A stretch of 64,000 nucleotides of DNA from Limnochordales bacterium (GTDB lineage Bacteria > Bacillota > Limnochordia > Limnochordales > ZCTH02-B6): assembly GCA_035304545.1 (NCBI GenBank), contig DATGPV010000018.1, positions 4,331 to 68,330 on the forward strand, given 5' to 3'. Below, one piece after another: positions 8,568 through 47,547 of the stretch (position 1 is the stretch's first letter; every line of letters starts with the position of its first letter). A model generated the notes under the pieces. It was not told where the DNA came from, searched no databases, and saw only the letters and a list, made by a program, of their open reading frames with translations. The position numbers and the translations under genes were made by a program.

Positions 8568-8922
8568 CAACAGGTGTGACCGTAAGCCAGATTCTGTTTC
8601 CGATGGCCATCTATCTCGCCCGGCCAAGGCCGGACGGCCTCCCTCGGGAGGCTGCCCCCTACCCGCCCCTACCGGGGCCTATTTGGGGTTGCTCGGTGGT
8701 GGGGGTTACCGCGTTCCACCCGCCCCGTCGCCGGGGCGACTCGTCTCTATGGCCCTTTTATAGCTAATCCCGACCGCGAGGGCCGGTTTCGCATCCGTCG
8801 GCTCGCGCCGCCCTGCCTTGCGGCAGGCACCAACTTTCTGCCGGTGGAAACCGACAGCCGAGTCTGGACTTTCCTCTAGCGGCCCCAAGGGGCCGCCAGC
8901 GGCCATCCGTCACACCTGTCGC
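8568..8922 (-). ncRNA. rnpB: RNase P RNA (bacterial, apparently type A)
   Basis: The minus strand reads GCTAGAGGAAAGTCCAGACTCGGC (CR-I), then GCGGTAACCCCCACCACCGAGCAACCCCAAATAGGCCCC, then GGAAACAGAATCTGGCTTACGGTCACACCTGT (CR-V region). P1 forms between 5' ACAGGTGTGAC (8919-8909) and 3' GTCACACCTGT (8580-8570). Ends are approximate (+/- 5 nt). Confidence 0.88.
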
Positions 8923-18514: not shown

Positions 18515-18619
18515 GTCGCGACCTCCCTTCTGCCGTGAAGTGAACGCGAACATTGTACCACACATTTTCGCTGGAGGGTATAGGGATTTGCCCCCGGAGG
18601 CAGACTGTGACGGCAGGAG

Positions 18620-19813
18620 GTGGGGCCTTTGGAACTGGGCGCCATCCACACCGAGTGGACCCGCCGCTACCGGACCCGCACCGACCTCGCCTTGGAAGCC
18701 CGGGAGGTGGTGATCCAGCACGAAGGCCCGCCCGAGATCCCCGGGGTCGCGGTGGAGACCGAAGAAACGCCGGTGGGGACCATTTCCCGGGTGGCCATCA
18801 CCACCGAGACCGGGGCGCGGGCCATGGGCAAGCTGCCGGGCCACTACACCACCATCGAGGCGCCGGCCCTGCGCCAGCGGGATCAGGATGCGCTGGAACA
18901 AGTGGCCCAGTTGATCGGACGGGAGCTCCAAGCCTTCCTCACCCGCTGGCAGGTGCCCCTGGACGGGGAGGTGCTGGTGGTGGGCCTCGGCAACTGGAAC
19001 GCGACGCCCGACGCCGTTGGGCCCCGCACCATCCACCACCTGATCGTCACCCGCCACTTCTACTACATGGCGCCGCCGGGAGCCCGCACCGGGGCCCGGC
19101 CCGTGGCCGGCATCTCCCCGGGCGTTTTGGGCATCACCGGGCTGGAGACCGCCGAGATCGTTCAGGGCATCGTTCGCCAAATCCACCCGGCCTTGGTGGT
19201 CTGCATCGACGCCCTCGCGGCCCGCAGTACGGAGCGGCTGGGCACGACCGTCCAGATCGCCGACGCCGGGATCCAGCCCGGTTCGGGCGTGGGCAACAAG
19301 CGGTTTGGCATCACTCGCCAGACCTTGGGCGTGCCCGTCCTGGCCATCGGCGTGCCCACCGTGGTCCACGCGCTGACGGTGGTGGCCGATGGCCTGGAGC
19401 GGATGGCCGCCCACCGCAGCCCGGCGGCAGCGCCGGCCCCGGGCCCGGCGCCCGCGCCTCCAGGGACCGGCCCGGCCGCGGCATCCCCCGGCGGTGCCGC
19501 CCCGGTCCCGGGCGTGCCGCTGCCGGATCCCCGCTGGATCTTCGGTTCGGGCGCCCCGGGTCATCCGCCGGCGGCGGGGTCCGCCGGGGGCCTTTCCCAG
19601 GCTGGGGGACCGCCGCCGGGCCCCCAGCAGCGGGCGGTTCTGGAGGAAGTGCTGGGGCCGTACATGGGCGAGTTGATCATGACGCCAAAAGAGATCGACG
19701 TGCTGGTGGAAGATGTGGCCGAAATGCTGGCCGAAGGGCTCAACCAGGGCCTCCATCCCGACTTGGATTTGAACCGGCTGATCCTGGCCGCCACGGGCGG
19801 GGCGCCAGCGTAG
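18620..19813 (+). CDS. gpr: Germination protease (GPR endopeptidase)
   Basis: VLVVGLGNWNATPDAVGP...GISPGVLGITGLETAEIV...IDALAARSTERLGTTVQIADAGIQPGSGVGNKR...GVPVLAIGVPTVV...MTPKEIDVLVEDVAEMLAEGLN. The likely start is TTG 18629, 8 nt after AGGAGG. Confidence 0.92.
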   Translation: MGPLELGAIHTEWTRRYRTRTDLALEAREVVIQHEGPPEIPGVAVETEETPVGTISRVAITTETGARAMGKLPGHYTTIEAPALRQRDQDALEQVAQLIGRELQAFLTRWQVPLDGEVLVVGLGNWNATPDAVGPRTIHHLIVTRHFYYMAPPGARTGARPVAGISPGVLGITGLETAEIVQGIVRQIHPALVVCIDALAARSTERLGTTVQIADAGIQPGSGVGNKRFGITRQTLGVPVLAIGVPTVVHALTVVADGLERMAAHRSPAAAPAPGPAPAPPGTGPAAASPGGAAPVPGVPLPDPRWIFGSGAPGHPPAAGSAGGLSQAGGPPPGPQQRAVLEEVLGPYMGELIMTPKEIDVLVEDVAEMLAEGLNQGLHPDLDLNRLILAATGGAPA

Positions 19814-19821
19814 CGGCGCCG

Positions 19822-21213
19822 TCAGGGCGCCGGCCCGCCCTCCAACAGGTCTCGCACCACGGCGGCAGCCCACTCCTCGGGCACGGGGCTGTCGGTCCAG
19901 AAGGCTGCCCACTGGGGGGCGGCCCGGTCCCAGAGGGATTCCGCCGCAAACGCGGCCCCCGCGCCGGAGCCCGCGTGCAGCACGTACTCAGCCAGAAATT
20001 GCTTGCTGCGGGCGTCCAGGGGGGCCAGGTCGTGCCAGGCGTGCAAGGTCGCCGGTCGGGCCGGCAAGAGCCCCAGCGTTTCCGCGAGCCAAGTCTCGGT
20101 GCGGGCCGCAAGCCAGCTGGCTAGCTCCATGGCCAGGCGCGTGTGATCATCTCCTTGGTAGGCGTCCTGGCGAAACACGAGGTAGCCGCTGGGTACCGCG
20201 GGCGCGGTTTCCGGGGCGGCGGGGTGGTGGGGGATGGGCACCAGCAGGAACCGACCGGGCCGGCGGCGCAGGACGGCCTGCGCGAGGTGCGGGCCCACCG
20301 GGCCGATGAGCGCCGTCCGGCCGGTGATGAGCCGTTCCAGCCGGGTGCGGCTGGCGGTGGCCGGATCGCCGGGCACGGCTCCGTGCTCCCGGAGGGTTTG
20401 CAGCCAGCGGGCCACCCGCACCAGGGCTTCCTGCAGCCCGGCGACGCCTTCCGGAGGATGGGGCGGGACCGGGGCCCCCGCGTTGAGGACCAGCTCCGCC
20501 AAGGTCGGGACGGACGCGGCGTCCAGCACCAGCGGGTCCGCCACGGCTTCCCGCAGCCGCTCCGCCAGCTGCAGGACGTCGTCCCACGTCCAGCCCCGGA
20601 CCAGCACGGCGTCCACGTCCACGCCGCCGCGAGCCAACAGCTCCGGATCGGCCAGCCAGACCGACCACCATAAGGCTCTCGGCCAGGCCCAGACGGTGCC
20701 GTCGCGGGTCAAGCCGCCGGTGGCCGCGGGGAGAAAGGGCGGCAGCTCGCCGCGGCCGGTCCCGGGGAAATACGGTTCGGCGGGGATCTGGTGGGACGGA
20801 TGCAGGATGAGCCCCGCGGCGGTGCCGTACACATCGGGGGGCCGGCCGGCGGCCACCGCGGCGGCCAGCTGGTCCCGGGCTTGCAGCGGGTCCAGGAGGC
20901 TGTAGCTGACCCGGACGTTGGGCCGCCGCTCCGTAAAGGCCGCCACGGCCTCATCCAGCACCGAACGGTGATCCGCCTCGGCCCAGGGCACGACGATGGC
21001 TTCCTCCCATACGACCAGCTCGTATTGCCGCTGGGGATCGACGCGGGCCTGGGGATCGATGGCGATGCCAGCGGCTTCAAAACGGGGGACCAGCCAGGTC
21101 CGCCAGGCCCAGAAGGCCCCCGCGGCGGCCGCCAACGCGCCCAGGACGATGATGAGGACCGCGCGCCCCCACCGACGCGCCACCGGCGTTCGCCTCCTCC
21201 ACTGGCTAACCAT
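19822..21213 (-). CDS. Membrane-anchored extracellular solute-binding-protein-like protein (ABC SBP family 1-like), orphan
   Basis: 463 aa. The N-terminal TM anchor is RAVLIIVLGALAAAAGAFWAW. The rest resembles sugar-type SBPs in length and composition. No permease or ATPase genes are adjacent. Confidence 0.6.
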   Translation of the reverse strand: MVSQWRRRTPVARRWGRAVLIIVLGALAAAAGAFWAWRTWLVPRFEAAGIAIDPQARVDPQRQYELVVWEEAIVVPWAEADHRSVLDEAVAAFTERRPNVRVSYSLLDPLQARDQLAAAVAAGRPPDVYGTAAGLILHPSHQIPAEPYFPGTGRGELPPFLPAATGGLTRDGTVWAWPRALWWSVWLADPELLARGGVDVDAVLVRGWTWDDVLQLAERLREAVADPLVLDAASVPTLAELVLNAGAPVPPHPPEGVAGLQEALVRVARWLQTLREHGAVPGDPATASRTRLERLITGRTALIGPVGPHLAQAVLRRRPGRFLLVPIPHHPAAPETAPAVPSGYLVFRQDAYQGDDHTRLAMELASWLAARTETWLAETLGLLPARPATLHAWHDLAPLDARSKQFLAEYVLHAGSGAGAAFAAESLWDRAAPQWAAFWTDSPVPEEWAAAVVRDLLEGGPAP

Positions 21214-21222
21214 ACGGTGCGG

Positions 21223-21262
21223 CCCCGGGCTTTATGCCGGGGAGCCGGCATAAAGCCCGGGG
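21223..21262. repeat. Perfect 18-bp inverted repeat in the divergent SBP-like/spoIIP intergenic region
   Basis: CCCCGGGCTTTATGCCGG (21223-21240), loop GGAG, CCGGCATAAAGCCCGGGG (21245-21262). The right arm contains GCATAAA. 15 nt further on is CATAGACT (21270-21277), giving a sigma-E-like -35/-10 pair. Confidence 0.8.
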
Positions 21263-21300
21263 TTCGTCCCATAGACTGGCAGTGGAAAGGGAGGGGAGCC

Positions 21301-22752
21301 GTGCGTCGGATCCGACACGGGAGGCTGCGCTGGCGCCTGCGGATTACTCGCGTCCGGGTCGGGCGGTGGCTGCCCCGGGCCCTCCGCCGGCCCATCCGCA
21401 ACCTGCTGGTTTTTTGGTGCCTCCTATTGGTGGCCCTGGGGCTGGTGGCCGCAGTGGGGCGATACCCAGGCGCCCGCGGCTGGGCGGGGGAGGCCGCGGC
21501 CCGGGCGTGGCAGTCGGCCAGGGCGGCGGCGGGCGAGCTCTTGCCGGGCCTGGTGTCTTGGGCCCAGGCCGGCGGGCGGCTGGCGCCGGCCGCCCTGCGG
21601 GAGGGCCTGCCCAAGGGGGTGTGGGCCGCCGAGACCGAGCCCCCGCCGGCCCCCGGCTGGCGGCAGCAGGTGCAGGCGGTGGTGTACGCCTTGACCCGCT
21701 ACGACCTGCGAAGCCCAGGCGCGATCCTGGCCGCGGGGCTGCCGGGCGGGGGCCAGGGGCTGGGGAGCGCCGGACTGTGGCCGCCGGTGCCCCCGGCGCC
21801 CGGCTCCCGGGGTCGGGTCGTGGTGACCGCCCGGGGTGAACCCTCCCTCGGGTCGCCGCCCGCGCCCCCGGCGCCGGGGCCGGCCTCCTTTGGCGATGTT
21901 GAGCCCCGGCCAGGGGATGGCCGCCCAGGGCCTGCCCTTGGTTCCGGAGCGGCGCCGGGAGCCGCCCCCGTTCCGGTGCCGGACCCCGCGCCCGAGTCCC
22001 GTCCGCAGGCTCCCTTGCGGCCCGGGGATGAGCCCGGCGGGAGCCTCCCCGCGGCGCCCCCGGACCGCGACTGGCGGGCCCGGCTGCGGGCCGCCCAGTG
22101 GAGCGAGGGCTGCCGGGTCCTCATCTACCACACCCACACATCGGAGACGTACCGGACGGGTTCCTTTGCCCCAGCCGACGAAGACGCGTACCACCTTTGG
22201 AACACACCGGAAACGGGCATCGTCGCGGTGGGGCGTGCCATCAAGGCGCGGCTGGAGACGGTCTACGGCATTCCCACCTGCCACTCGACGGCCATCCACG
22301 ACTGGCCGTCCCATCCCCGGGCCTACATCCAGTCCCGGGCCACGGTGCAAGAGCTCTTGGCTCAAAATCCCCAGGTGGAGCTGGTGCTGGACGTGCACCG
22401 GGACGCGCCCGCGGGGCTGGTGGCCACCGTCGCTGGCCGCCGGGCTGCTCAGCTGGCCTTGGTAGTGGGCACCAACACCGCGATGCATCCCGGTTGGCGG
22501 CAAAACCTGGCCTTCGCGGAGGAACTGGGCGCCCGCATCGCGGACCGCTATCCGGGCCTGTTCCGCCGGGTCATCCAGCGGCCCGAATCCCGCCTCAACC
22601 AGGACCTGCACCCCCGGGCGGTGCTGGTGGAAGTGGGCTCGTACCACAACCACCTGGACGAGGCGCTGTTCGCAGCGGAGCTGCTGGCCGATGTGCTGGC
22701 GGAGACGCTGGCGGAGATCCTGGACCGCCGGACGGATGGGACCGTCCGCTAG
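21301..22752 (+). CDS. spoIIP: Stage II sporulation protein P (SpoIIP amidase/endopeptidase)
   Basis: The C-terminal domain reads VLIYHTHTSETYR...ELVLDVHRDA...AQLALVVGTNT...NQDLHPRAVLVEVGSYHN. The start is GTG 21301 after AAAGGGAGGGG, followed by a TM segment (LLVFWCLLLVALGLVAAV). The track ORF from 20791 is an overextension. Confidence 0.9.
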   Translation: MRRIRHGRLRWRLRITRVRVGRWLPRALRRPIRNLLVFWCLLLVALGLVAAVGRYPGARGWAGEAAARAWQSARAAAGELLPGLVSWAQAGGRLAPAALREGLPKGVWAAETEPPPAPGWRQQVQAVVYALTRYDLRSPGAILAAGLPGGGQGLGSAGLWPPVPPAPGSRGRVVVTARGEPSLGSPPAPPAPGPASFGDVEPRPGDGRPGPALGSGAAPGAAPVPVPDPAPESRPQAPLRPGDEPGGSLPAAPPDRDWRARLRAAQWSEGCRVLIYHTHTSETYRTGSFAPADEDAYHLWNTPETGIVAVGRAIKARLETVYGIPTCHSTAIHDWPSHPRAYIQSRATVQELLAQNPQVELVLDVHRDAPAGLVATVAGRRAAQLALVVGTNTAMHPGWRQNLAFAEELGARIADRYPGLFRRVIQRPESRLNQDLHPRAVLVEVGSYHNHLDEALFAAELLADVLAETLAEILDRRTDGTVR

Positions 22753-35574: not shown

Positions 35575-36108
35575 TCAGGGCAGCCGCAAGGTCACGGCCT
35601 CGGCGGCCAGCGGCGGATCCGAGGTCAGCGTCCCGTGCACCTCCACGGTGCCTGTCACCGGGCGCCCCGCGGCGTCCCGGCCGTCCCATACCGCGGTGAA
35701 GATGACCAGTTCTCCCGGCGGCCAGCGGCGCTGCTGGATGGCCTGGTGGAAGACGCGGCCCTGGGACCAGCGCCAGATTTCCTCGCCGTCTTGAACGACG
35801 ACGAAGTCGTAGGTCTGGCCGTTGCGGAAGGTCACCACTGCCGTCTCCTCGCCCGTGGCCATGGCGCCCAGGACGAAAAGGTATCGCGGCTCGTCGCCTG
35901 TAGCCAGCGGTTCCACGGACAGGGCGACGGCTACCGGGGGCGCGGTCCCGGGCCATCCGGGGCCCGTGACGGTTTCCCCTGCGCCTTTCCCTGCGCCCAT
36001 CCCTGCGCCAGTCATGAGGGCGCCCACCCCTCCCAAGATGAACAGCAGCCGCCAATCCCAGCGGAGAGCCGCCGGTCGGCGCGCTCGGACCGTATGGTTC
36101 CTCCACAT
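35575..36108 (-). CDS. Membrane-anchored BsuPI-like (intracellular proteinase inhibitor family) protein
   Basis: TM anchor WRLLFILGGVGALMTGAG, then VVTFRNGQTYDFVVVQDGEEIWRWSQGRVFHQAIQQRRWPPGELVIFTAVWDGRD. This matches my recollection of the BsuPI (PF12690) pattern sGq.yDf.v.d..G..vWrwS.g..ftq......l.pGe. The start is ATG 36108. Confidence 0.7.
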   Translation of the reverse strand: MWRNHTVRARRPAALRWDWRLLFILGGVGALMTGAGMGAGKGAGETVTGPGWPGTAPPVAVALSVEPLATGDEPRYLFVLGAMATGEETAVVTFRNGQTYDFVVVQDGEEIWRWSQGRVFHQAIQQRRWPPGELVIFTAVWDGRDAAGRPVTGTVEVHGTLTSDPPLAAEAVTLRLP

Positions 36109-36208
36109 CAGGTAAACCCCCTCTCGTGGGCAAGACCGCCCCACGGCCTTAAGCCCGGGGCCCGGATCCGGCGCCGCGGGGCCGGCGGCCCGGGCCCATG
36201 GGCTCGGC

Positions 36209-38221
36209 TCAGCGGTGGATCAAGGCCGCCAGGCGACTCTGGTCCGCGGCCGGCAGCGTGTCCCAGATGGCCAGGGGCAAGTCGACGGACACGGTACCGT
36301 CCTCGGGCACGGCGACTTCAGCCAGGCCGGCGAAGTCACCGGGGCCCATCAGGCCGTCGGGGTACGCATCGATCCAGCCAAACACCGTGTGCCGGCCGGG
36401 GACAAGCCCTTCGACCCGGGCCACGGCCTGGCCCCCCTGCCGTTGGGGATGGACGGGTCCCCAGACGTGGCTGCCGTCGGCCGCGGCAACACCTACCAAG
36501 GCGTGAATCGGATCCGACCGGGTCACCGCCGCGTAGGCATTGACCAGGCCCCATCCGTACCGGTGGTCGAAGCCGGGCGCCCCCAGGTCCTCCGCCGTGT
36601 AGCGCAAGAGGTCCCGGATCTCCTGGGCGTCGGTGATACCTGCACTATACATCAGCGCGACGATGCCCGTCACGTGGGGAGCCGCGAAGGAAGTTCCCTG
36701 TTGGTAGGAGTAGACGGCGCTGCCGCTGGTCAGGTTGGTGCTCAGGACGCCGTCCAGCCGGCTGCGCCGGGTGTCGCCGCCGGGCGCCACCAGATCCAGC
36801 TCGGGCCCGTAGTTGCTGTACCAAGCGGCTTGCTTGTGGCGGTCCACCGCTCCCACCGCGATGACGTCGGGATGGCTGGCGGGCATGGTGACTCGGCCGC
36901 TGTCATTGCCGGCGCCGGCCACCAGCACGACGCCCCGGCTGGCCGCGTACTCGATCTGCTGATTGACGAAGGTGTCGTTGTAGGCCGCGTCCCAGGCCAG
37001 GCTCATGTTGATGACGTGCGCGCCGTTGTCGACGGCCCAGCGGATACCCTGGCCCACCGCGGCCACCGTGCCGCCGGACCGGGAGCTCATGACCCGCACC
37101 GGCATAATGGACACATTCCAGTTGATGCCGGCGATGCCCCGGGCGTTGTTGGCCGCGGCCGCGATAATTCCGGCCACCATGGTGCCGTGGCTGACGTCGG
37201 TGGCGTCGTCGGTGTAGTTGGTGGCCGACTGGCCGCTGGCAAAGTTGCGGCCGTGGACGATGTTGACCCCCGCCAAGTCGGGATGCTGGGGCAACAGGCC
37301 CGTGTCCAGCACCGCCACCACCACGTCGCGGCTGCCGGTGGTCACTCCCCAGGCGTAAGGGATGCTGATCAGGGGCAGGCTCCACTGTTGGTCGAAGTAG
37401 GGATCGTTGGGGGTCGGAACCGCCACCGGGTATACCTGCCGGTTGGGTTCCACCGACACCACGTTGGGCAGCTGGGCCAGCCGCAGCTCCGTCTCCAGGG
37501 GCGACGCACCCTCGGGCGCCGCGACCAGGTAGAAGTTGTCGGCCAGCCGCTCCAAGACGTGGACGCCCGCCGCGGCCCACATGTCTTGCACAGCCTGGAC
37601 CGGGTAATCGGCGTTCATCTGGACGATCCACTGGCCGGGCACCGTGGCGGCCGCGGTGCGCACCACGGATCGGCTTGCGCCCGCGGCCCGCAGCTCCTCC
37701 TCCAGCCGGCCGGCGGACCCGATGGAGGCTGGCCGGGCGCCGGCCGCGCCCGCGGCACTGGTGCCGGACGGGGCGTTGACCAGCCGGACGAGGGCTTCCA
37801 CGGCGCCGTTGCCCATGGGCGGCGGCGCATCGCCGCTGCCGCCGTCGTCGCCGTCCTCCAATGGCAGCAGGCGTACGGTGATAAAGAGCTGCTGGCCCGG
37901 GGCCGGCTGGATGAGCACTGTGGCGCTGCGGTAGCCCGGGGCCACCGCGGTCACCGTCATGGTGGCGCCATCCACCGGCACCTGGGGCAACGAGAAGGCG
38001 CCGTCGTCGCCGGAGATGGTTTCCAGGTCACCGACCCGCACCACCGCGCCGGCGATGGGGGCGTCGCCGGCGCCGTCGGCCACCACGACCCCTTGCAGGC
38101 CAAAGGTGCCGGCGCCGGGGCGGGACCCGAAGCATCCCGCCAAGACCGCGGCCAGCAGCAGCAGCGCGATGCCTGCCAGCGGGCGGCGGCGCGTCCTCTG
38201 GGCATTGGGAACGTCTCTCAC
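36209..38221 (-). CDS. S8-family (subtilisin-like) serine peptidase, predicted lipoprotein, with N-terminal carboxypeptidase-regulatory-like domain
   Basis: Catalytic triad contexts: VVVAVLDTGL (Asp), SHGTMVAGIIAA (His), GTSFAAPHVTGIVALM (Ser). Lipobox LLLLAAVLAGC. The preferred start is GTG 38221 (RDVPNAQRTRRRPLAGIALLL), downstream of GGAGGAGG. The track start 38419 adds 66 aa with no support. Confidence 0.9.
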   Translation of the reverse strand: MRDVPNAQRTRRRPLAGIALLLLAAVLAGCFGSRPGAGTFGLQGVVVADGAGDAPIAGAVVRVGDLETISGDDGAFSLPQVPVDGATMTVTAVAPGYRSATVLIQPAPGQQLFITVRLLPLEDGDDGGSGDAPPPMGNGAVEALVRLVNAPSGTSAAGAAGARPASIGSAGRLEEELRAAGASRSVVRTAAATVPGQWIVQMNADYPVQAVQDMWAAAGVHVLERLADNFYLVAAPEGASPLETELRLAQLPNVVSVEPNRQVYPVAVPTPNDPYFDQQWSLPLISIPYAWGVTTGSRDVVVAVLDTGLLPQHPDLAGVNIVHGRNFASGQSATNYTDDATDVSHGTMVAGIIAAAANNARGIAGINWNVSIMPVRVMSSRSGGTVAAVGQGIRWAVDNGAHVINMSLAWDAAYNDTFVNQQIEYAASRGVVLVAGAGNDSGRVTMPASHPDVIAVGAVDRHKQAAWYSNYGPELDLVAPGGDTRRSRLDGVLSTNLTSGSAVYSYQQGTSFAAPHVTGIVALMYSAGITDAQEIRDLLRYTAEDLGAPGFDHRYGWGLVNAYAAVTRSDPIHALVGVAAADGSHVWGPVHPQRQGGQAVARVEGLVPGRHTVFGWIDAYPDGLMGPGDFAGLAEVAVPEDGTVSVDLPLAIWDTLPAADQSRLAALIHR

Positions 38222-38469
38222 GAGCGGTGAATGCCTCCTCCACTGACAATCGCTTGCGGCAGTGGTCAACCATTCCTTGACCCGCGGTCTGGAACCCTGC
38301 TCCGGCCATAATGGGAATCGCTGGGGCGGATAGGAACGGTCGGGCCGGGGACGGTTTCCGTCCTGGGCCGCCGCGCGGCATAGACTGGTACGAACCCGGC
38401 GGGCTTTGGGACGGGTCATGGCCCTGGGACGTGCCCGTTCCGGAGCGTTCCTTTGGAGAGGTGGAGAGA

Positions 38470-38937
38470 ATGCCGAGAAAAGTTGTCGCGCCTAGGCGCC
38501 TGGGCGCCGCGCGGGGGCGCCGATCGGTCCCCCGGAGCTGGCGCCGGCGGCGGGGGGGCCGCACCAGATTCCGGCGGGTGGCGCTCCCCGTTCCTTCCCG
38601 GCGGCTTCGGGCCAGCGTGCCTCAGGCAGCGTCCGACTACCCAGCGGCAGCCCCGGCGGCTGCGCCCGAGCTTTCCCTGGAAGACCCGCTGGTGCGGGCG
38701 ACCCGCGACGCGCTCCGCCGGCTGGTGGGGCAGCGGGTCCAGCTGCTCATCGCGGGCCAGGCAGTGCCCGAGATCGGGCCCTGGGACACGGACGGCATGC
38801 TGACCGGGGTGGGAGAGAGCCTGGTCGCTTTGCGCCCCGGGCACGGCCCCAACGCCGGGCGGGAGATCCGCTTCTCCCTGCACAGCGTGCTGGGCTTCAT
38901 TCCCTTGCCCGGCATGGACCCGGGGATGCCCCGGTGA
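38470..38937 (+). CDS. Hypothetical protein with an Arg-rich N-terminal tail and a small C-terminal globular domain
   Basis: ATG 38470 follows GGAGAGGTGGAG. Translation: MPRKVVAPRRLGAARGRRSVPRSWRRRRGGRTRFRR...LVGQRVQLLIAGQAVPEIGPWDTDGMLTGVGESLVALRPG...IRFSLHSVLGFIPLP. I do not recognise a family. Confidence 0.5.
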   Translation: MPRKVVAPRRLGAARGRRSVPRSWRRRRGGRTRFRRVALPVPSRRLRASVPQAASDYPAAAPAAAPELSLEDPLVRATRDALRRLVGQRVQLLIAGQAVPEIGPWDTDGMLTGVGESLVALRPGHGPNAGREIRFSLHSVLGFIPLPGMDPGMPR

Positions 38938-39065
38938 CCGACCGGACCGCCGCCGGGGCCGAGGTGAGGCGACCGGGGCCGCGCAAATGAGAAAGCGTTC
39001 CTAAGGCAGGGGGGGACGGGCCCACATACCGTAGCACTGAAGCCAACGAAAAGGAGGTGCCGTCG

Positions 39066-39383
39066 ATGTCTTGCGTCAACGGCGTGCGTACGGTGGTGGT
39101 GCGGCCCGTTTCCGTCTGCTCGAGCTTCGTGCGGACCATTGCGGTCAAGCCCATCGCCCTGCGGACGGTGGCTGTGCGGCCCATCTTCGTCCGCTCCATC
39201 GCGGTGCGGCCGATCCTGGTGCGGCGGATCTTTCTGCGCACCGTCGCCGTCAAGCCCGTCTCTGTCCGGCCTGTCTTCCTGCGCACCATCGCGGTCCGGC
39301 CCGTGTTGGTCCGCCGGGCCTTCGTCAGGCCTATCTTCGTCAATGGCCTGCGCACTATCGCCGTGAAGAACCACTTCTGCTGA
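39066..39383 (+). CDS. Hypothetical 105-aa hyper-basic protein made of about 18 tandem pentads (non-canonical pentapeptide-repeat-like)
   Basis: AAGGAGGTG (39051-39059) lies 6 nt before ATG 39066. Translation: MSCVNGVRTVVVRPVSVCSSFVRTIAVKPIALRTVAVRPIFVRSIAVRPILVRRIFLRTVAVKPVSVRPVFLRTIAVRPVLVRRAFVRPIFVNGLRTIAVKNHFC. GC3 is about 90% in this frame. Synonymous codon variation (gtg/gtc, cgg/cgc/agg, atc/att) preserves the residue pattern. Confidence 0.65.
   Translation: MSCVNGVRTVVVRPVSVCSSFVRTIAVKPIALRTVAVRPIFVRSIAVRPILVRRIFLRTVAVKPVSVRPVFLRTIAVRPVLVRRAFVRPIFVNGLRTIAVKNHFC
39081..39374 (+). repeat. 15-bp-periodic degenerate tandem repeat (coding repeat of the CDS above)
   Basis: Example units: gtgcggcccatcttc / gtccgctccatcgcg / gtgcggccgatcctg / gtgcggcggatcttt / ctgcgcaccgtcgcc / gtcaagcccgtctct. 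Arg or Lys recurs every 5th codon. Confidence 0.85.
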
Positions 39384-39477
39384 AGCTGCTCCCGCGCGGG
39401 CCCGCACCCGGGCCCTCCACCCCGCGGCAGCCGCCGCCAGGCGCGTCCCGGTTGAGCTCAGCACCGGGGCGCGCCGC

Positions 39478-39506
39478 TTTACCTTTGCTCCCGCCTGCGT
39501 TATACT
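39478..39506 (+). promoter_or_regulatory. Putative sigma-A promoter of tatA
   Basis: TTTACC (39478-39483), 17 nt, TATACT (39501-39506). Confidence 0.45.
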
Positions 39507-45232: not shown

Positions 45233-45994
45233 GTGCCCCTGGATGAGCTTTTGGCCCTGTTGTTTGCTTTCTACATTCTGAGCTGGGTCATGGCGGCCCT
45301 GGCGCGCCGCCGGCCCGGGCCCGGCGGCGGGTCCGCCGGGGACGACGGGGCGGGGCCCGAAGACATCTTGGACATGGACGAACTGGAGCGGCGGCTGCGC
45401 CGGGCCCGGGAGGAGATGCTGCGCCCGCCGCCGGCCGGCCCGGATGAGGGGCCGCCGCCGGTGATCCCGCGGCCTGCCGCCCCCGGGGAGTGGCCGCTGG
45501 GGGTGCCGTCCCCGCGGCCGGCGGCGGAAACGCCGGCTCGGACAGCGCCGGCTCCGGCGGCGCCGGTTCCCGTGGGGGCGCCCGCCCAAGGCGGGGCAGA
45601 GAGGCCCCGGATGCCCGCGGCGATGCGGCGCCCCGCCACCCGGCCCACGGTACGGCCATCCCGCCCCGACGAGGTTTTTGATGACCTGACGCTGGCCGAA
45701 GGTGACTGGGGCGCGGGCGCCGCGGATATCCCGCTGGGCGCGGACGTCCTGGACATCCCGGACATCGCGGGGAGCGGGGGCGCCTTGACGGACGGTCCGC
45801 TGCGCGGCCAGCCGCCGGCCGCCCCTGGGGCCGGGGAACGGCGGGCTGCGCCCGGGCAGCTGCCCCCCGCGGCCGCGGCGCTGCTCGCGCGGGGGCAGCC
45901 GTGGCTGGCGGCGGTAGTCCTCAAGGAGGTGTGGGATGCTCCCCGGGCCCTGCGGCCCCATCGGGCCTGGCCCAGGGGGCATCCGCAGGTCTAG
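45233..45994 (+). CDS. Hypothetical TM-anchored Pro/Ala-rich protein (positional equivalent of yqfB)
   Basis: GTG 45233 lies 6 nt after GGAGGTGA. The N-terminal TM segment is LLALLFAFYILSWVMAALA, and the rest is low-complexity P/A/G. All six frames are open here, so the call rests on the SD, the TM segment and gene position. Confidence 0.5.
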   Translation: MPLDELLALLFAFYILSWVMAALARRRPGPGGGSAGDDGAGPEDILDMDELERRLRRAREEMLRPPPAGPDEGPPPVIPRPAAPGEWPLGVPSPRPAAETPARTAPAPAAPVPVGAPAQGGAERPRMPAAMRRPATRPTVRPSRPDEVFDDLTLAEGDWGAGAADIPLGADVLDIPDIAGSGGALTDGPLRGQPPAAPGAGERRAAPGQLPPAAAALLARGQPWLAAVVLKEVWDAPRALRPHRAWPRGHPQV

Positions 45995-46035
45995 CCGGCG
46001 CGCCCGCGGCATAGGGTGTCCCGGGAGGGACGGCC

Positions 46036-46314
46036 GTGGGACGGCAGCGCGGCAGCGTGGCAGAGCGCCTGGTGCGGGCCTTGGAGCTGCCCCAGGATAT
46101 CGTTTTCAACCTGCCCAAGACGACGCTCATCGGCGATGTGCAGATGCTGGTGGAGAACCATCAAGGGCTGCTCAAGTACACGCCCCGCGAAATCCGGATT
46201 CGCACCACCCAGGGTGAGCTGGTCGTGACGGGCAGCCGCCTCGCCATCGGCAGCATTCTCCCTCAGGAACTGGTGGTGGACGGGCGCATCCTCCAAGTGC
46301 AGCTGCACCGCTGA
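46036..46314 (+). CDS. yqfC: Sporulation protein YqfC
   Basis: ALELPQDIVFNLPKTTLIGDVQMLVENHQGLLKYTPREIRIRTTQGELVVTGSRLAIGSI matches the YqfC family pattern and gene order. Confidence 0.9.
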   Translation: MGRQRGSVAERLVRALELPQDIVFNLPKTTLIGDVQMLVENHQGLLKYTPREIRIRTTQGELVVTGSRLAIGSILPQELVVDGRILQVQLHR

Positions 46315-46332
46315 GGAGGCCCGCCCCGGCCT

Positions 46333-47547
46333 ATGCGCGCCCTGTCGTCCCTGTTCAGAGGATATGTTATAATCAGAGCAAAGGGTGGCCGCCTCGAAGC
46401 GTTCGTAAACCGGGTCGTCGCCCAGGGGATCGCCCTGTGGCGGCTGGAGCGGGTGGCCCCGCACCTCCTGGTGGCCCGGGTGGCGGCGTCCGACTTCCCG
46501 CGGGTGGCCAGGGCGGGCCGGCGGCTGGGAGTGCACGTGGTCATCCTGCACAAGGCCGGCCTGCCGTTTTTGTTGCTGCGGGCTGGACGCCGGCCCGCCT
46601 TCGTGGCCGGCGGGGCGCTGCTGGCCGCCCTGCTGTACGTGCTGGGCCAGTTCGTCTGGTTCGTGCGGGTGGAGGGTGTCCAGGCCTTGCCGCCGCACCG
46701 CCTGTTGGCGGTGGCGGCCGAGGCGGGCTTGCGCCCGGGCGTTTTGCGGGACCTGGTGCGGCGGGACGTGGTGGAGCGGCGGCTGTACCTGGAGATCCCC
46801 CAGTTGGCCTGGACGGCGGTGGAGATCCGGGGCACGGTGGCCACCGTCCGGGTGGTGGAGCGCACCGAACTGGAGGCCGGCCAGCGGCAGCCGGGCCATA
46901 TCGTGGCCGTACGCGACGGTGTGGTGGAACAGGCGGCCGCGCTGCGGGGCGAAGTGCTGGTGACCCCCGGGGAAACGGTGCGGGCGGGCCAGCCCCTCAT
47001 CAGCGGCATGCTGCCGCCGGGCAGCGCGGAGTACCAGGAGCACATCGCCCGGGGTCAGCTGCCCTACGTGCGGGCCGCCGGCGTCGTGCGGGGCCGCACG
47101 TGGTACCGGGGGCTGGCGGAGGCGCCGCTTGTGCGGGTCGTAGAGGAGGATACGGGCAGGCGGCACCGCTACGGGATCCTCCGCCTGGGCCGGTGGCAAC
47201 TGCGCCTGGGCCGCACCGCGGCCCCCTTTGCCGCGGCCCGGTGGGAGGAGCACACCCGGTCGCTGGCCGCCCTACCCGGGCTCTCGTGGACGTGGCATGT
47301 GGCCTACGAAGTCCGGCGGTGGGAGGAACCCGTGGGCGCGGCCCAGGCCCGGGCCGAAGCGGTGGCCCAGGCCCGCGCCCAGGTGGCGGCGCAGCTGCCG
47401 GCCGGGGGCGAAATTCTGGACGAGCAGGTAACCGTCACCGAGGACCGGTCCGCGGGTGTGGTGCGGGCCATGGTCACGCTGGAGGTCCTGCAGGATCTGG
47501 GCCGGTTTGCGCCCATCGGCGCCGGCCCGGACGGCCAAGACGGCTGA
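46333..47547 (+). CDS. yqfD: Sporulation protein YqfD (stage IV)
   Basis: LFRGYVIIRAKGGRLEAFVNRVVAQGIALWRLERV, a central TM segment, and YqfD family architecture. It follows yqfC. Confidence 0.9.
   Translation: MRALSSLFRGYVIIRAKGGRLEAFVNRVVAQGIALWRLERVAPHLLVARVAASDFPRVARAGRRLGVHVVILHKAGLPFLLLRAGRRPAFVAGGALLAALLYVLGQFVWFVRVEGVQALPPHRLLAVAAEAGLRPGVLRDLVRRDVVERRLYLEIPQLAWTAVEIRGTVATVRVVERTELEAGQRQPGHIVAVRDGVVEQAAALRGEVLVTPGETVRAGQPLISGMLPPGSAEYQEHIARGQLPYVRAAGVVRGRTWYRGLAEAPLVRVVEEDTGRRHRYGILRLGRWQLRLGRTAAPFAAARWEEHTRSLAALPGLSWTWHVAYEVRRWEEPVGAAQARAEAVAQARAQVAAQLPAGGEILDEQVTVTEDRSAGVVRAMVTLEVLQDLGRFAPIGAGPDGQDG

Follow-up and report, generated by a model that had tools for sequence, protein, structure and literature searches.

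A small, acid-free, strongly cationic pentad-repeat protein encoded by a Limnochordales bacterium

In a 64,000-nucleotide stretch of DNA from a Limnochordales bacterium (contig DATGPV010000018.1; the whole stretch is referred to here as the window), the open reading frame (ORF) at 39066..39383 on the + strand is a real gene that encodes a protein, occurs in a single copy and is monocistronic. It runs from ATG 39066 to TGA 39381-39383, as read directly on the sequence, and specifies 105 residues plus stop. The product is MSCVNGVRTVVVRPVSVCSSFVRTIAVKPIALRTVAVRPIFVRSIAVRPILVRRIFLRTVAVKPVSVRPVFLRTIAVRPVLVRRAFVRPIFVNGLRTIAVKNHFC, in which a net charge of +20 and a complete lack of Asp and Glu are combined with a grand average of hydropathy (GRAVY) of +0.83. 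The protein contains 17 Arg, 3 Lys, 25 Val, 9 Ile, 8 Pro, 8 Ala and 7 Phe, six each of Ser, Thr and Leu, three Cys (positions 3, 18 and 105), three Asn, two Gly and one His; 19% of its residues are basic, 56% hydrophobic and 6% Ser. A Shine-Dalgarno (SD) sequence, AAGGAGGTG, is found at 39051..39059 (+) with a 6-nt spacer to the ATG, and its GGAGGTG core is invariant in all eight loci of the family for which DNA was obtained. The textbook SD and its spacer, the acid-free 105-residue product with 17 Arg and 3 Lys, its charge of about +20 and the Cys residues near both ends had all been reported in a preliminary description of this DNA, and direct counting bears them out. Judged from its sequence, the gene is constrained and probably well translated, and the family to which it belongs is new, compositionally odd and narrow in distribution.

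The reality of the gene is established by orthologous DNA from seven loci besides the window, members of a family recovered by a profile search built on the first two matches. The + frame alone, out of the six, is open in 8/8 loci. For pairs of orthologs, dN/dS ranges from 0.16 to 0.42 inside the main subfamily and from 0.33 to 0.59 when the two subfamilies are compared, and in several pairs the amino-acid identity exceeds the nucleotide identity. The closest ortholog (L017; dN/dS 0.22, dS 0.58) has 107 residues, is 73% identical to the window protein, is likewise acid-free and contains 19 unbroken pentads; the two differ by indels of 1, 5, 3 and 1 codons. Indels in the family as a whole are of 1, 3, 5 or 6 codons and keep the frame, the sole exception being the frameshifted P0024, and indels that break the frame, which the preliminary description held would speak against a gene, are not seen in the eight loci. 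Invariance is seen at Met1, at Cys3 and the final Cys, at seven Arg and at several Val/Ile/Thr/Pro positions, and the constraint runs over the full length of the protein, both termini included. Because dN/dS is 0.16-0.59, indels stay in frame and the SD, start and terminal Cys are conserved, we agree with the earlier view that selection acts on the protein and not on a DNA repeat.

The GC contents of the three codon positions of the ORF are 0.61/0.48/0.89 in a window of 70% GC, in keeping with the third-position value (GC3) of about 90% given previously. A lower antisense GC3 had also been claimed; this holds for the codon-aligned antisense frame (0.62) but not for another antisense frame, which is also open in the window and whose GC3 is 0.89. 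Two antisense ORFs, 152 and 275 aa long, overlap the gene there, and the high-GC3 antisense frame is ruled out as the gene by stops in orthologs. Across six contigs that represent the window's species in different samples the ORF DNA does not vary, and gene calls on contigs from 70 blocks of the assembly collection yield the identical protein. No paralogs were found in the window or in any ortholog locus obtained, no cultured relatives were recovered (a contig scan of genomes gave a single metagenome-assembled genome, MAG), the viral contigs scanned contained no match to the family, and the DNA of a 6.5-kb region had no match among plasmids. By its sequence matches, the family is confined to a narrow clade of Limnochordales from compost-type metagenomes. 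Since NCBI labels family members, the sister ortholog included, "hypothetical protein", and since the exact window protein is absent from the protein collection queried, the family is easily overlooked.

Seventeen in-register pentads of the form [A/F/L/S]-[V/L]-[R/K]-[P/T/S/R]-[I/V] occupy residues 6-90 of the window protein (39081..39335, +). Their five columns hold, in order, [A/F/S/L]; 14 Val and 3 Leu; 14 Arg, 2 Lys and 1 Cys; 8 Pro, 5 Thr, 2 Ser and 2 Arg; and 8 Ile and 7 Val. The basic residues thus fall in a single register, at 8, 13, 23, 28 and onward to 88, with Cys18 replacing one of them, and additional Arg residues lie outside the register at 54 and 84. After the sequence NGL the register slips by 3, and R96 and K101 then give two shifted pentads, so that the preliminary estimate of about 18 pentads with a basic residue at every fifth position is close to the 17 in-register and two shifted units counted here. 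Basic-basic pairs at a lag of 5 number 15, a value matched by none of 100,000 shuffles (maximum 10). From residue 31 the pentads are grouped in threes into a 15-residue (45-bp) super-repeat, [AVRPV][LVRRI][FLRTI], and Tandem Repeats Finder detects periods of both 15 and 45 bp in the ORF DNA; the 15-bp periodicity noted before is therefore present, but the true super-repeat is three times as long. The claim of mainly synonymous divergence between units was overstated, as the codon pairs that differ between units comprise 238 residue-changing and 113 synonymous cases. Its companion observation holds: the invariant V and R columns mix codons (GTC/GTG/CTG and CGG/CGC/AGG/AAG). Pairs of Arg are found at residues 53-54 and 83-84, in RRIFLR (53-58) and RRAFVR (83-88).

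Members of the family are 93-119 aa long, with an isoelectric point of ~12, net charges of +14 to +20 and GRAVY values of +0.3 to +0.83. They start with M-[G/S/A]-C-V-[R/K]-T and end in KNHFC, KNHHC, KVC, RFC or Cys-Val. The codon for Cys3, which is invariant in the motif M-[G/S/A]-C, is at 39072..39074 (+) and that for the C-terminal Cys105 is at 39378..39380 (+), full-length members all ending in Cys or Cys-Val. Cys18 (39117..39119, +), within the motif SVC[S/P]SFVR, is kept in the window subfamily, which consists of the window protein, the L017 ortholog and the partial sequence P0001. In this subfamily pentads extend over the whole length and all acidic residues have been lost. Members of the main subfamily share an 80-residue core, MGCVRTISLRPSALRTIVVRNGLRTIAVNSHGLRTIVVPRTISLRPISFSDSFLARVRVTVTPISNGVARAVAVRPVFVRP, that is conserved but less regular and contains one or two acidic residues; a variable V-R-P tail comes after it, and the pentad register is broken repeatedly. 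Conservation of the register in orthologs, one of the points at issue in the preliminary description, is seen in L017 but not in the main subfamily. The C-terminal tail varies in frame by 5-6 residues among relatives that are at least 90% identical. Two members have unusual C-termini: P0024 (121 aa, from a single 1,079-bp contig of the JGI collection) is a C-terminal frameshift variant and P0001 (116 aa, reading through at a contig edge) has an aberrant non-repeat tail, each of which may be an error of sequencing or assembly, or else real.

FoldIndex values of +0.17 to +0.33 for the family (+0.31 for the window protein), together with a mean beta propensity of 1.12-1.19 versus 0.97-1.00 for alpha, place the family on the collapsed or ordered side, unlike disordered basic proteins. 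The window protein has neither a Sec nor a Tat signal, because no uncharged stretch is longer than 9 residues (14-22) and an h-region needs about 12. With an 11-sequence family alignment, AlphaFold2 gave a mean predicted local distance difference test score (pLDDT) of 31 for the window protein and 34 for P0002, with no stack of coils; as the input was monomeric and the alignment shallow, an oligomeric or ligand-dependent fold would be beyond its reach. The beta-solenoid with four pentads per turn that had been envisaged receives no support from these models or from the super-period of three pentads.

No described family accommodates the protein, and this earlier conclusion is upheld after an exhaustive search. 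For the window protein, the L017 ortholog and P0006, Pfam contained no family at E≤10, in a search in which a genuine pentapeptide-repeat protein (PRP) scored 1e-49 as the positive control. The PRP profiles PF00805, PF13599 and PF13576, proposed as a check in the preliminary description, gave no match at that threshold for three family members, nor did PF01469 and PF25296. NCBIfam, PADLOC and a PDB profile search had no match for the window protein either, an NCBIfam hit to 'ribosomal protein L23' at 15 bits against a cutoff of 154 being dismissed as noise, and a hidden Markov model (HMM) search of 1.84 billion representatives returned a single family cluster. PRPs (PF00805; MfpA, Qnr and Rfr) resemble the window protein in their long, unbroken five-residue periodicity, in hydrophobic residues two positions apart and in the frequency of Arg after the central hydrophobic residue. 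The PRP consensus, however, is (A/C/S/V/T/L/I)(D/N/S/K/E/I/R)(L/F)(S/T/R/E/Q/K/V/D)(G/D/E/N/R/Q/K) over at least eight contiguous pentads (PMC8145042), and it fits 1/20 pentads of the window protein in the best of the five registers and none in the register proposed previously. The window family lacks [D/N] at i-1 and [L/F] at i, and PRPs have an acidic surface and a four-pentad super-period where the window protein is cationic and hydrophobic, has a super-period of three and yielded no beta-helix in the AlphaFold2 models; the difference from canonical acidic PRPs stressed in the preliminary description is thus borne out. PF01469 (XNXGX) requires an Asn and a Gly per unit, whereas the window protein has 3 Asn, 2 Gly and no match. 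An apparent tblastn match to Ralstonia phage BOESR1 (E 4e-7) proved to be an artefact: it is out of frame, beginning 55 nt into the coding sequence of a canonical (ADLRG)n gene, and BLASTP found nothing at E≤100 when the actual product of that gene was used. Against the same (ADLRG)n protein, taken as a bona fide PRP, hhalign of the family alignment gave a probability of 0.1%.

Two further groups of repeat proteins bear comparison. Non-homologous, repeat-built, strongly cationic proteins of the CotG type are abundant components of the Bacillus spore coat (PMC9765600). Like them, the window protein is of small to medium size, elongated from a short repeat, very positive, acid-free in the repeat region (17 pentads, each built on Arg or Lys save the one with Cys18) and without an export signal, and CotG-like relatives in different species need not share sequence. 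CotG itself is hydrophilic and disordered (-0.72), with 47% basic and 9% hydrophobic residues and a high Ser content; its gene lies beside and divergent to that of the CotH kinase, which phosphorylates it at multiple sites (PMC9765600). Since the window protein is 56% hydrophobic with a FoldIndex of +0.31 and has no link to cotH, by these features it is not a CotG-like member. The second group emerged as weak extra matches of the family HMM (E 4e-6 to 5e-4), seven of which are (ALRSI)n-type arrays in secreted proteins. These proteins (P0029-P0032 and P0034-P0036) are 1,100-2,500 aa long, carry choice-of-anchor-Q, CSLREA, NosD-like beta-helix and OmpL47-barrel domains, and contain 8-12 identical units of internal (ALRSI)n, (GLRSI)n or (GVRNI)n followed by PLSEIPL, for example at residues ~390-470 of P0030. 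The ALRSI and GLRSI arrays have no match in Pfam or NCBIfam, and the GVRNI array of P0035 matches PF01469. They share with the window family an x-L-R-[S/T]-I pentad, which occurs there as ALRTI, GLRTI and FLRTI, but they have acidic residues and are short arrays within giant multidomain proteins, and the likeness is probably a convergent one of low complexity.

The ORF is preceded by four blocks whose spacing is fixed across orthologs. In the alignment of the eight upstream regions, block A, AAATGAGAAA (38985..38994, +; family consensus gAAAnnGrGA), is followed by block B, TTCCTAAGGC (GTACTATCGCC in most orthologs; 38998..39007, +), and the 'CTA' of block B is a constant 21 nt from the CAT of block C. 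Block C, CCCACATACCGTA (39021..39033, +; consensus CCACAT[A/G]sCGTr), is present in 8/8 loci, has a single exact match in the window and may serve as the -10-like element of a promoter outside the sigma-A class. Block D, GAAGCC (39039..39044, +), lies between block C and the ribosome-binding site in the ortholog alignment. No sigma-70-type promoter was detected upstream of the ORF. Block C resembles the -10 element CATAnnnT of mother-cell sigma factors, and a similar sequence, CATAGGGTG, precedes yqfC. By-eye assignment to sigma-E, K, F, G, H, extracytoplasmic function or sigma-54 promoters was rejected on account of misfitting spacings and of L017, and we have left the promoter class unassigned because L017 has CATG and because the CTA spacing is 21 nt rather than the 16 nt found before yqfC. 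An RNA element in the 5' untranslated region was also rejected, with a consensus structure of -0.5 kcal/mol, no covariation and no Rfam match near the ORF. Downstream, a GC-rich, terminator-like hairpin with a 13-bp stem followed by GCTTTACCTTT (39440..39475, +) abuts the -35 element of tatA, and hairpins with a T-run are found at the equivalent place in L001, L012, L014 and L017. The tatA promoter (TTTACC-N17-TATACT, 39478-39506) is canonical in every locus, and a shared operon with tatA was rejected given this promoter and the intervening hairpin. The T-run of the small-gene hairpin overlaps the tatA -35 (TTTACC), a compact layout (39440-39506) that is conserved across species.

As a tentative account of its role, to which we give somewhat less than even confidence, the protein may act as a cationic 'glue', prone to beta structure and made abundantly under particular conditions, that associates with itself, coats a polyanionic surface, possibly that of the spore, and is locked by terminal disulfides. 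Since residue 2 is small, Met1 would be removed by methionine aminopeptidase, leaving a mature chain with a Cys beside each end. The V/I/L/F-rich pentads would form short beta-strands interrupted by Arg-Pro or Arg-Thr turns, and these strands would drive assembly into insoluble beta-rich material. An Arg at every fifth residue, with no counter-charge in the chain, would bind a polyanionic surface or polymer, and the terminal Cys could link molecules head-to-tail or to partners by disulfides under oxidising conditions. The setting that appears most likely is the mother-cell cytoplasm, from which the protein would be deposited on the forming spore as material of the coat or integument type. Abundant, state-specific production is suggested by the strong conserved ribosome-binding site, the non-sigma-A-like elements and the lack of an export signal, and a spore setting by the gpr, spoIIP, yqfC and yqfD genes that the genome carries, with the cationic, repeat-built coat proteins of Bacillus such as CotG as a precedent.

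Several observations weigh against this polyanion-coating role. The case for beta-rich assembly draws on composition, because neither subfamily received a confident AlphaFold2 model (pLDDT 31 and 34). No coat gene, cotH-type kinase or transglutaminase adjoins the gene, and no cotH-family gene lies within at least 6 kb on each side in the loci on long contigs. The conserved neighbourhood is just the conserved dnaJ...rpsU backbone, and the likeness of block C to CATAnnnT breaks down in L017 and in the CTA spacing, as described above. Stacked Arg in a cross-beta or solenoid structure would require a counter-ion partner. Finally, in a paper on cultured Limnochordia that describes two new genera, round bodies are reported and spores are not mentioned (PMC11456536). 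A bolder form of the proposal, which we think rather unlikely, is that the protein represents a new class of acid-free, hyper-cationic, hydrophobic beta-solenoid or cross-beta polymer, with turns of 15 residues, Arg ladders neutralised by a polyanion (for example DNA, polyphosphate, lipopolysaccharide or an anionic polymer of the wall) and head-to-tail linkage through Cys. If true, it would be an unseen spore or envelope building material of diderm, sporulation-competent Limnochordia and the physical 'inverse' of the acidic, DNA-mimicking pentapeptide-repeat helices.

The chief competitor to the polyanion-coating role, itself unlikely, is that the protein binds or condenses nucleic acid, in the manner of protamines, histone-like proteins or proteins that protect spore DNA, or acts as an RNA chaperone, with the Arg ladder lying on the phosphates and the hydrophobic faces packing proteins along the polymer. 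Such a function would suit a charge of +20 with no acid, an Arg:Lys ratio of 17:3 and the finding that Arg residues form the most conserved columns; lacking an export signal, the protein would stay in the cytoplasm with DNA and RNA, and the presence of gpr indicates that packaging of spore DNA by small proteins is part of the biology. Protamines, histone-like proteins and alpha/beta small acid-soluble spore proteins (SASPs) share its small size, strong basicity and lack of an export signal, as well as the potential to be abundant in dormant cells. Protamines, HU, Hc1/Hc2 and alpha/beta SASPs are hydrophilic, however, which the window protein with its positive GRAVY and 56% hydrophobic residues is not. 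Moreover, profile searches of Pfam, NCBIfam and PDB connect it with no family that binds DNA or RNA, Pfam and NCBIfam give no match to a SASP profile, it offers no Gpr-type cleavage site since it has no Glu, and its terminal Cys pair has no obvious role in this function. We regard as distinctly improbable a membrane-active toxin, lysis factor or antimicrobial, or a precursor of Arg/Pro/Val-rich peptides possibly cut by the subtilase encoded nearby. A cationic and hydrophobic composition is typical of membrane-active peptides, the Bac5/Bac7-type and cationic beta-hairpin peptides share with the window protein short Arg-Pro-hydrophobic repeats and Cys that could bridge the ends, the divergent S8 protease/BsuPI pair is a neighbour wherever loci extend (at ~220-250 bp in the other species), and a non-housekeeping promoter would suit a product that is toxic when made constitutively. 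Bac5/Bac7-type peptides, however, are secreted host-defence peptides of 13-60 residues with prepro-leaders, whereas the bacterial window protein has 105 aa and 8% Pro, is leaderless and is predicted to be cytoplasmic. No leader or signal is present, no modification enzyme, ABC transporter or immunity gene lies near the gene in the eight loci, and PADLOC has no match. The subtilase carries a lipoprotein-type signal and would thus act extracytoplasmically, whereas no signal for export is present in the small protein; a 155-aa ORF intervenes between the two genes in the window species, and the constraint is full-length, unlike that expected of excisable units with conserved cleavage sites.

A divergent, cationic member of the PRPs is a very improbable explanation. 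The strict five-residue periodicity over 17 units speaks for it, as do hydrophobic residues at the would-be i and i-2 positions and Arg at i+1, which make three of the five consensus positions compatible; the absence of any profile match, the fit of at most one pentad to the consensus, the hhalign probability, the lack of an AlphaFold2 beta-helix, a super-period of three pentads against four and the repeated breaks of register in the other subfamily all tell against it. That there is no functional gene at all, but a shadow ORF or a coding-looking tandem repeat that drifts neutrally in a genome of 70% GC, is largely refuted and scarcely tenable. High-GC genomes do yield long spurious ORFs, the two antisense ORFs overlap, the copy number of the C-terminal tail varies among close relatives and the exact sequence is missing from the protein collection queried; yet only the + frame is open in 8/8 loci, dN/dS is well below 1, the SD, ATG, Cys3 and terminal Cys are conserved, the repeat is kept at the protein level with mixed synonymous codons, and the gene is called on contigs in 70 assembly blocks. 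Equally hard to credit is a Tat accessory or decoy, in which internal R-R-x-F-L-R motifs would mimic a twin-arginine signal. RRIFLR does fit the RRxFLK core and L017 has RRVFLR, tatA is adjacent in 8/8 loci and the subtilase signal contains RRR, but the motif is internal with no uncharged h-region after it, any pentad with Arg at position 4 produces it trivially, and in the other subfamily RR is followed by V or A without F-L. Moreover, tatA has its own promoter behind a terminator-like hairpin, and the region is syntenic in any case.

If the protein is made, it joins a charge of about +20 per 100 residues with a Val/Ile-rich, strictly five-spaced sequence. Such charge and hydrophobic periodicity rarely co-occur, and purifying selection keeps both in these uncultured thermophilic-compost bacteria. 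It would be a small test case for how stacked Arg fold or assemble with no counter-charge and for which polyanion is coated. Limnochordia are deep-branching two-membraned Firmicutes with sporulation genes in their genomes, but spores are not described for the two cultured genera of PMC11456536; a structural protein specific to this lineage and to one condition could therefore mark whatever dormant or envelope structure they build.

On long contigs the orthologs occupy a constant slot, with a divergent S8-protease/BsuPI pair upstream and tatA downstream; for L001 and L017 only the tatA side is visible, as the upstream DNA is too short. Adjacency to tatA is found in 8/8 loci. The slot is embedded in a conserved backbone, dnaJ-prmA-rsmE ... 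metallophosphoesterase-acyl-CoA dehydrogenase-HIT-rpsU-nfeD, and since this whole dnaJ...rpsU block is conserved, adjacency to the subtilase says little about function. The S8 subtilase (36209-38419, -) contains a CarboxypepD_reg domain and has a lipoprotein-type signal, ...TRRRPLAGIALLLLAAVLAGC, at its likely N-terminus; by virtue of the RRR run in this signal it might be exported by the Tat pathway. A subtilisin-like protease had been placed 1 kb from the gene; the protease is there, but its ORF ends ~650 bp upstream of the ORF start (~850 bp with the shorter called start, 38221). The BsuPI protease-inhibitor gene (35575-36144, -) comes next after the subtilase, and the pair is kept wherever the locus extends far enough. 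Between the subtilase and the small gene, the window has a 155-aa ORF with an Arg-rich N-terminal half (38470-38937, +) that has no match in Pfam or PADLOC; in the orthologous loci whose DNA covers the intergenic region the two genes are only ~220-250 bp apart. Another conserved block, TGCCAATTGGTGG, which in L008 and L012 contains the palindrome CCAATTGG, occurs ~85-110 nt before the small-gene ATG in L008, L012, L010, L014 and L001, and is not at the equivalent window position owing to the inserted 155-aa ORF; placed between the divergent genes, this block could be an operator or the subtilase promoter. On the other side of the slot, a beta-eliminating lyase (472 aa, tryptophanase-type, PF01212) directly follows tatA in L008, L010, L012 and L014, and the corresponding position in the window species, from tatA to the metallophosphoesterase, has no lyase.

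The neighbouring proteins carry the NCBI annotation of a Limnochordales bacterium MAG, and Limnochordia are diderm, high-GC and frequent in thermophilic compost (PMC11456536; PMC8434746). The window contains three sporulation loci, all on the + strand: gpr, encoding the germination protease (18620-19813), spoIIP (20791-22752) and yqfC (YabP family)/yqfD (46036-47547). The order comEA-comEC-holA-...-gpr-spoIIP-lepA-hemN-hrcA-grpE-dnaK-dnaJ-prmA is one that we take to be colinear with that of B. subtilis. At 46000-46036 (+), a sigma-E-like tCTAgcc-N13-CATAGGGTG lies ~17 nt before the GTG start of yqfC, an arrangement from which Bacillus-type mother-cell promoters may be recognisable in this lineage. 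Upstream of gpr (18560-18620, +), GGTATAGGG resembles the GTATA -35 of sigma-F/G, with an unconvincing -10. Between floA and yqfC, a 253-aa Pro/Ala/Gly/Arg-rich ORF (45233-45994, +) has one N-terminal hydrophobic segment and no Pfam match at E≤10. The sole Rfam match in the window above the gathering threshold is a class B RNase P RNA at 8578-8914 (-), which scores 146 bits.

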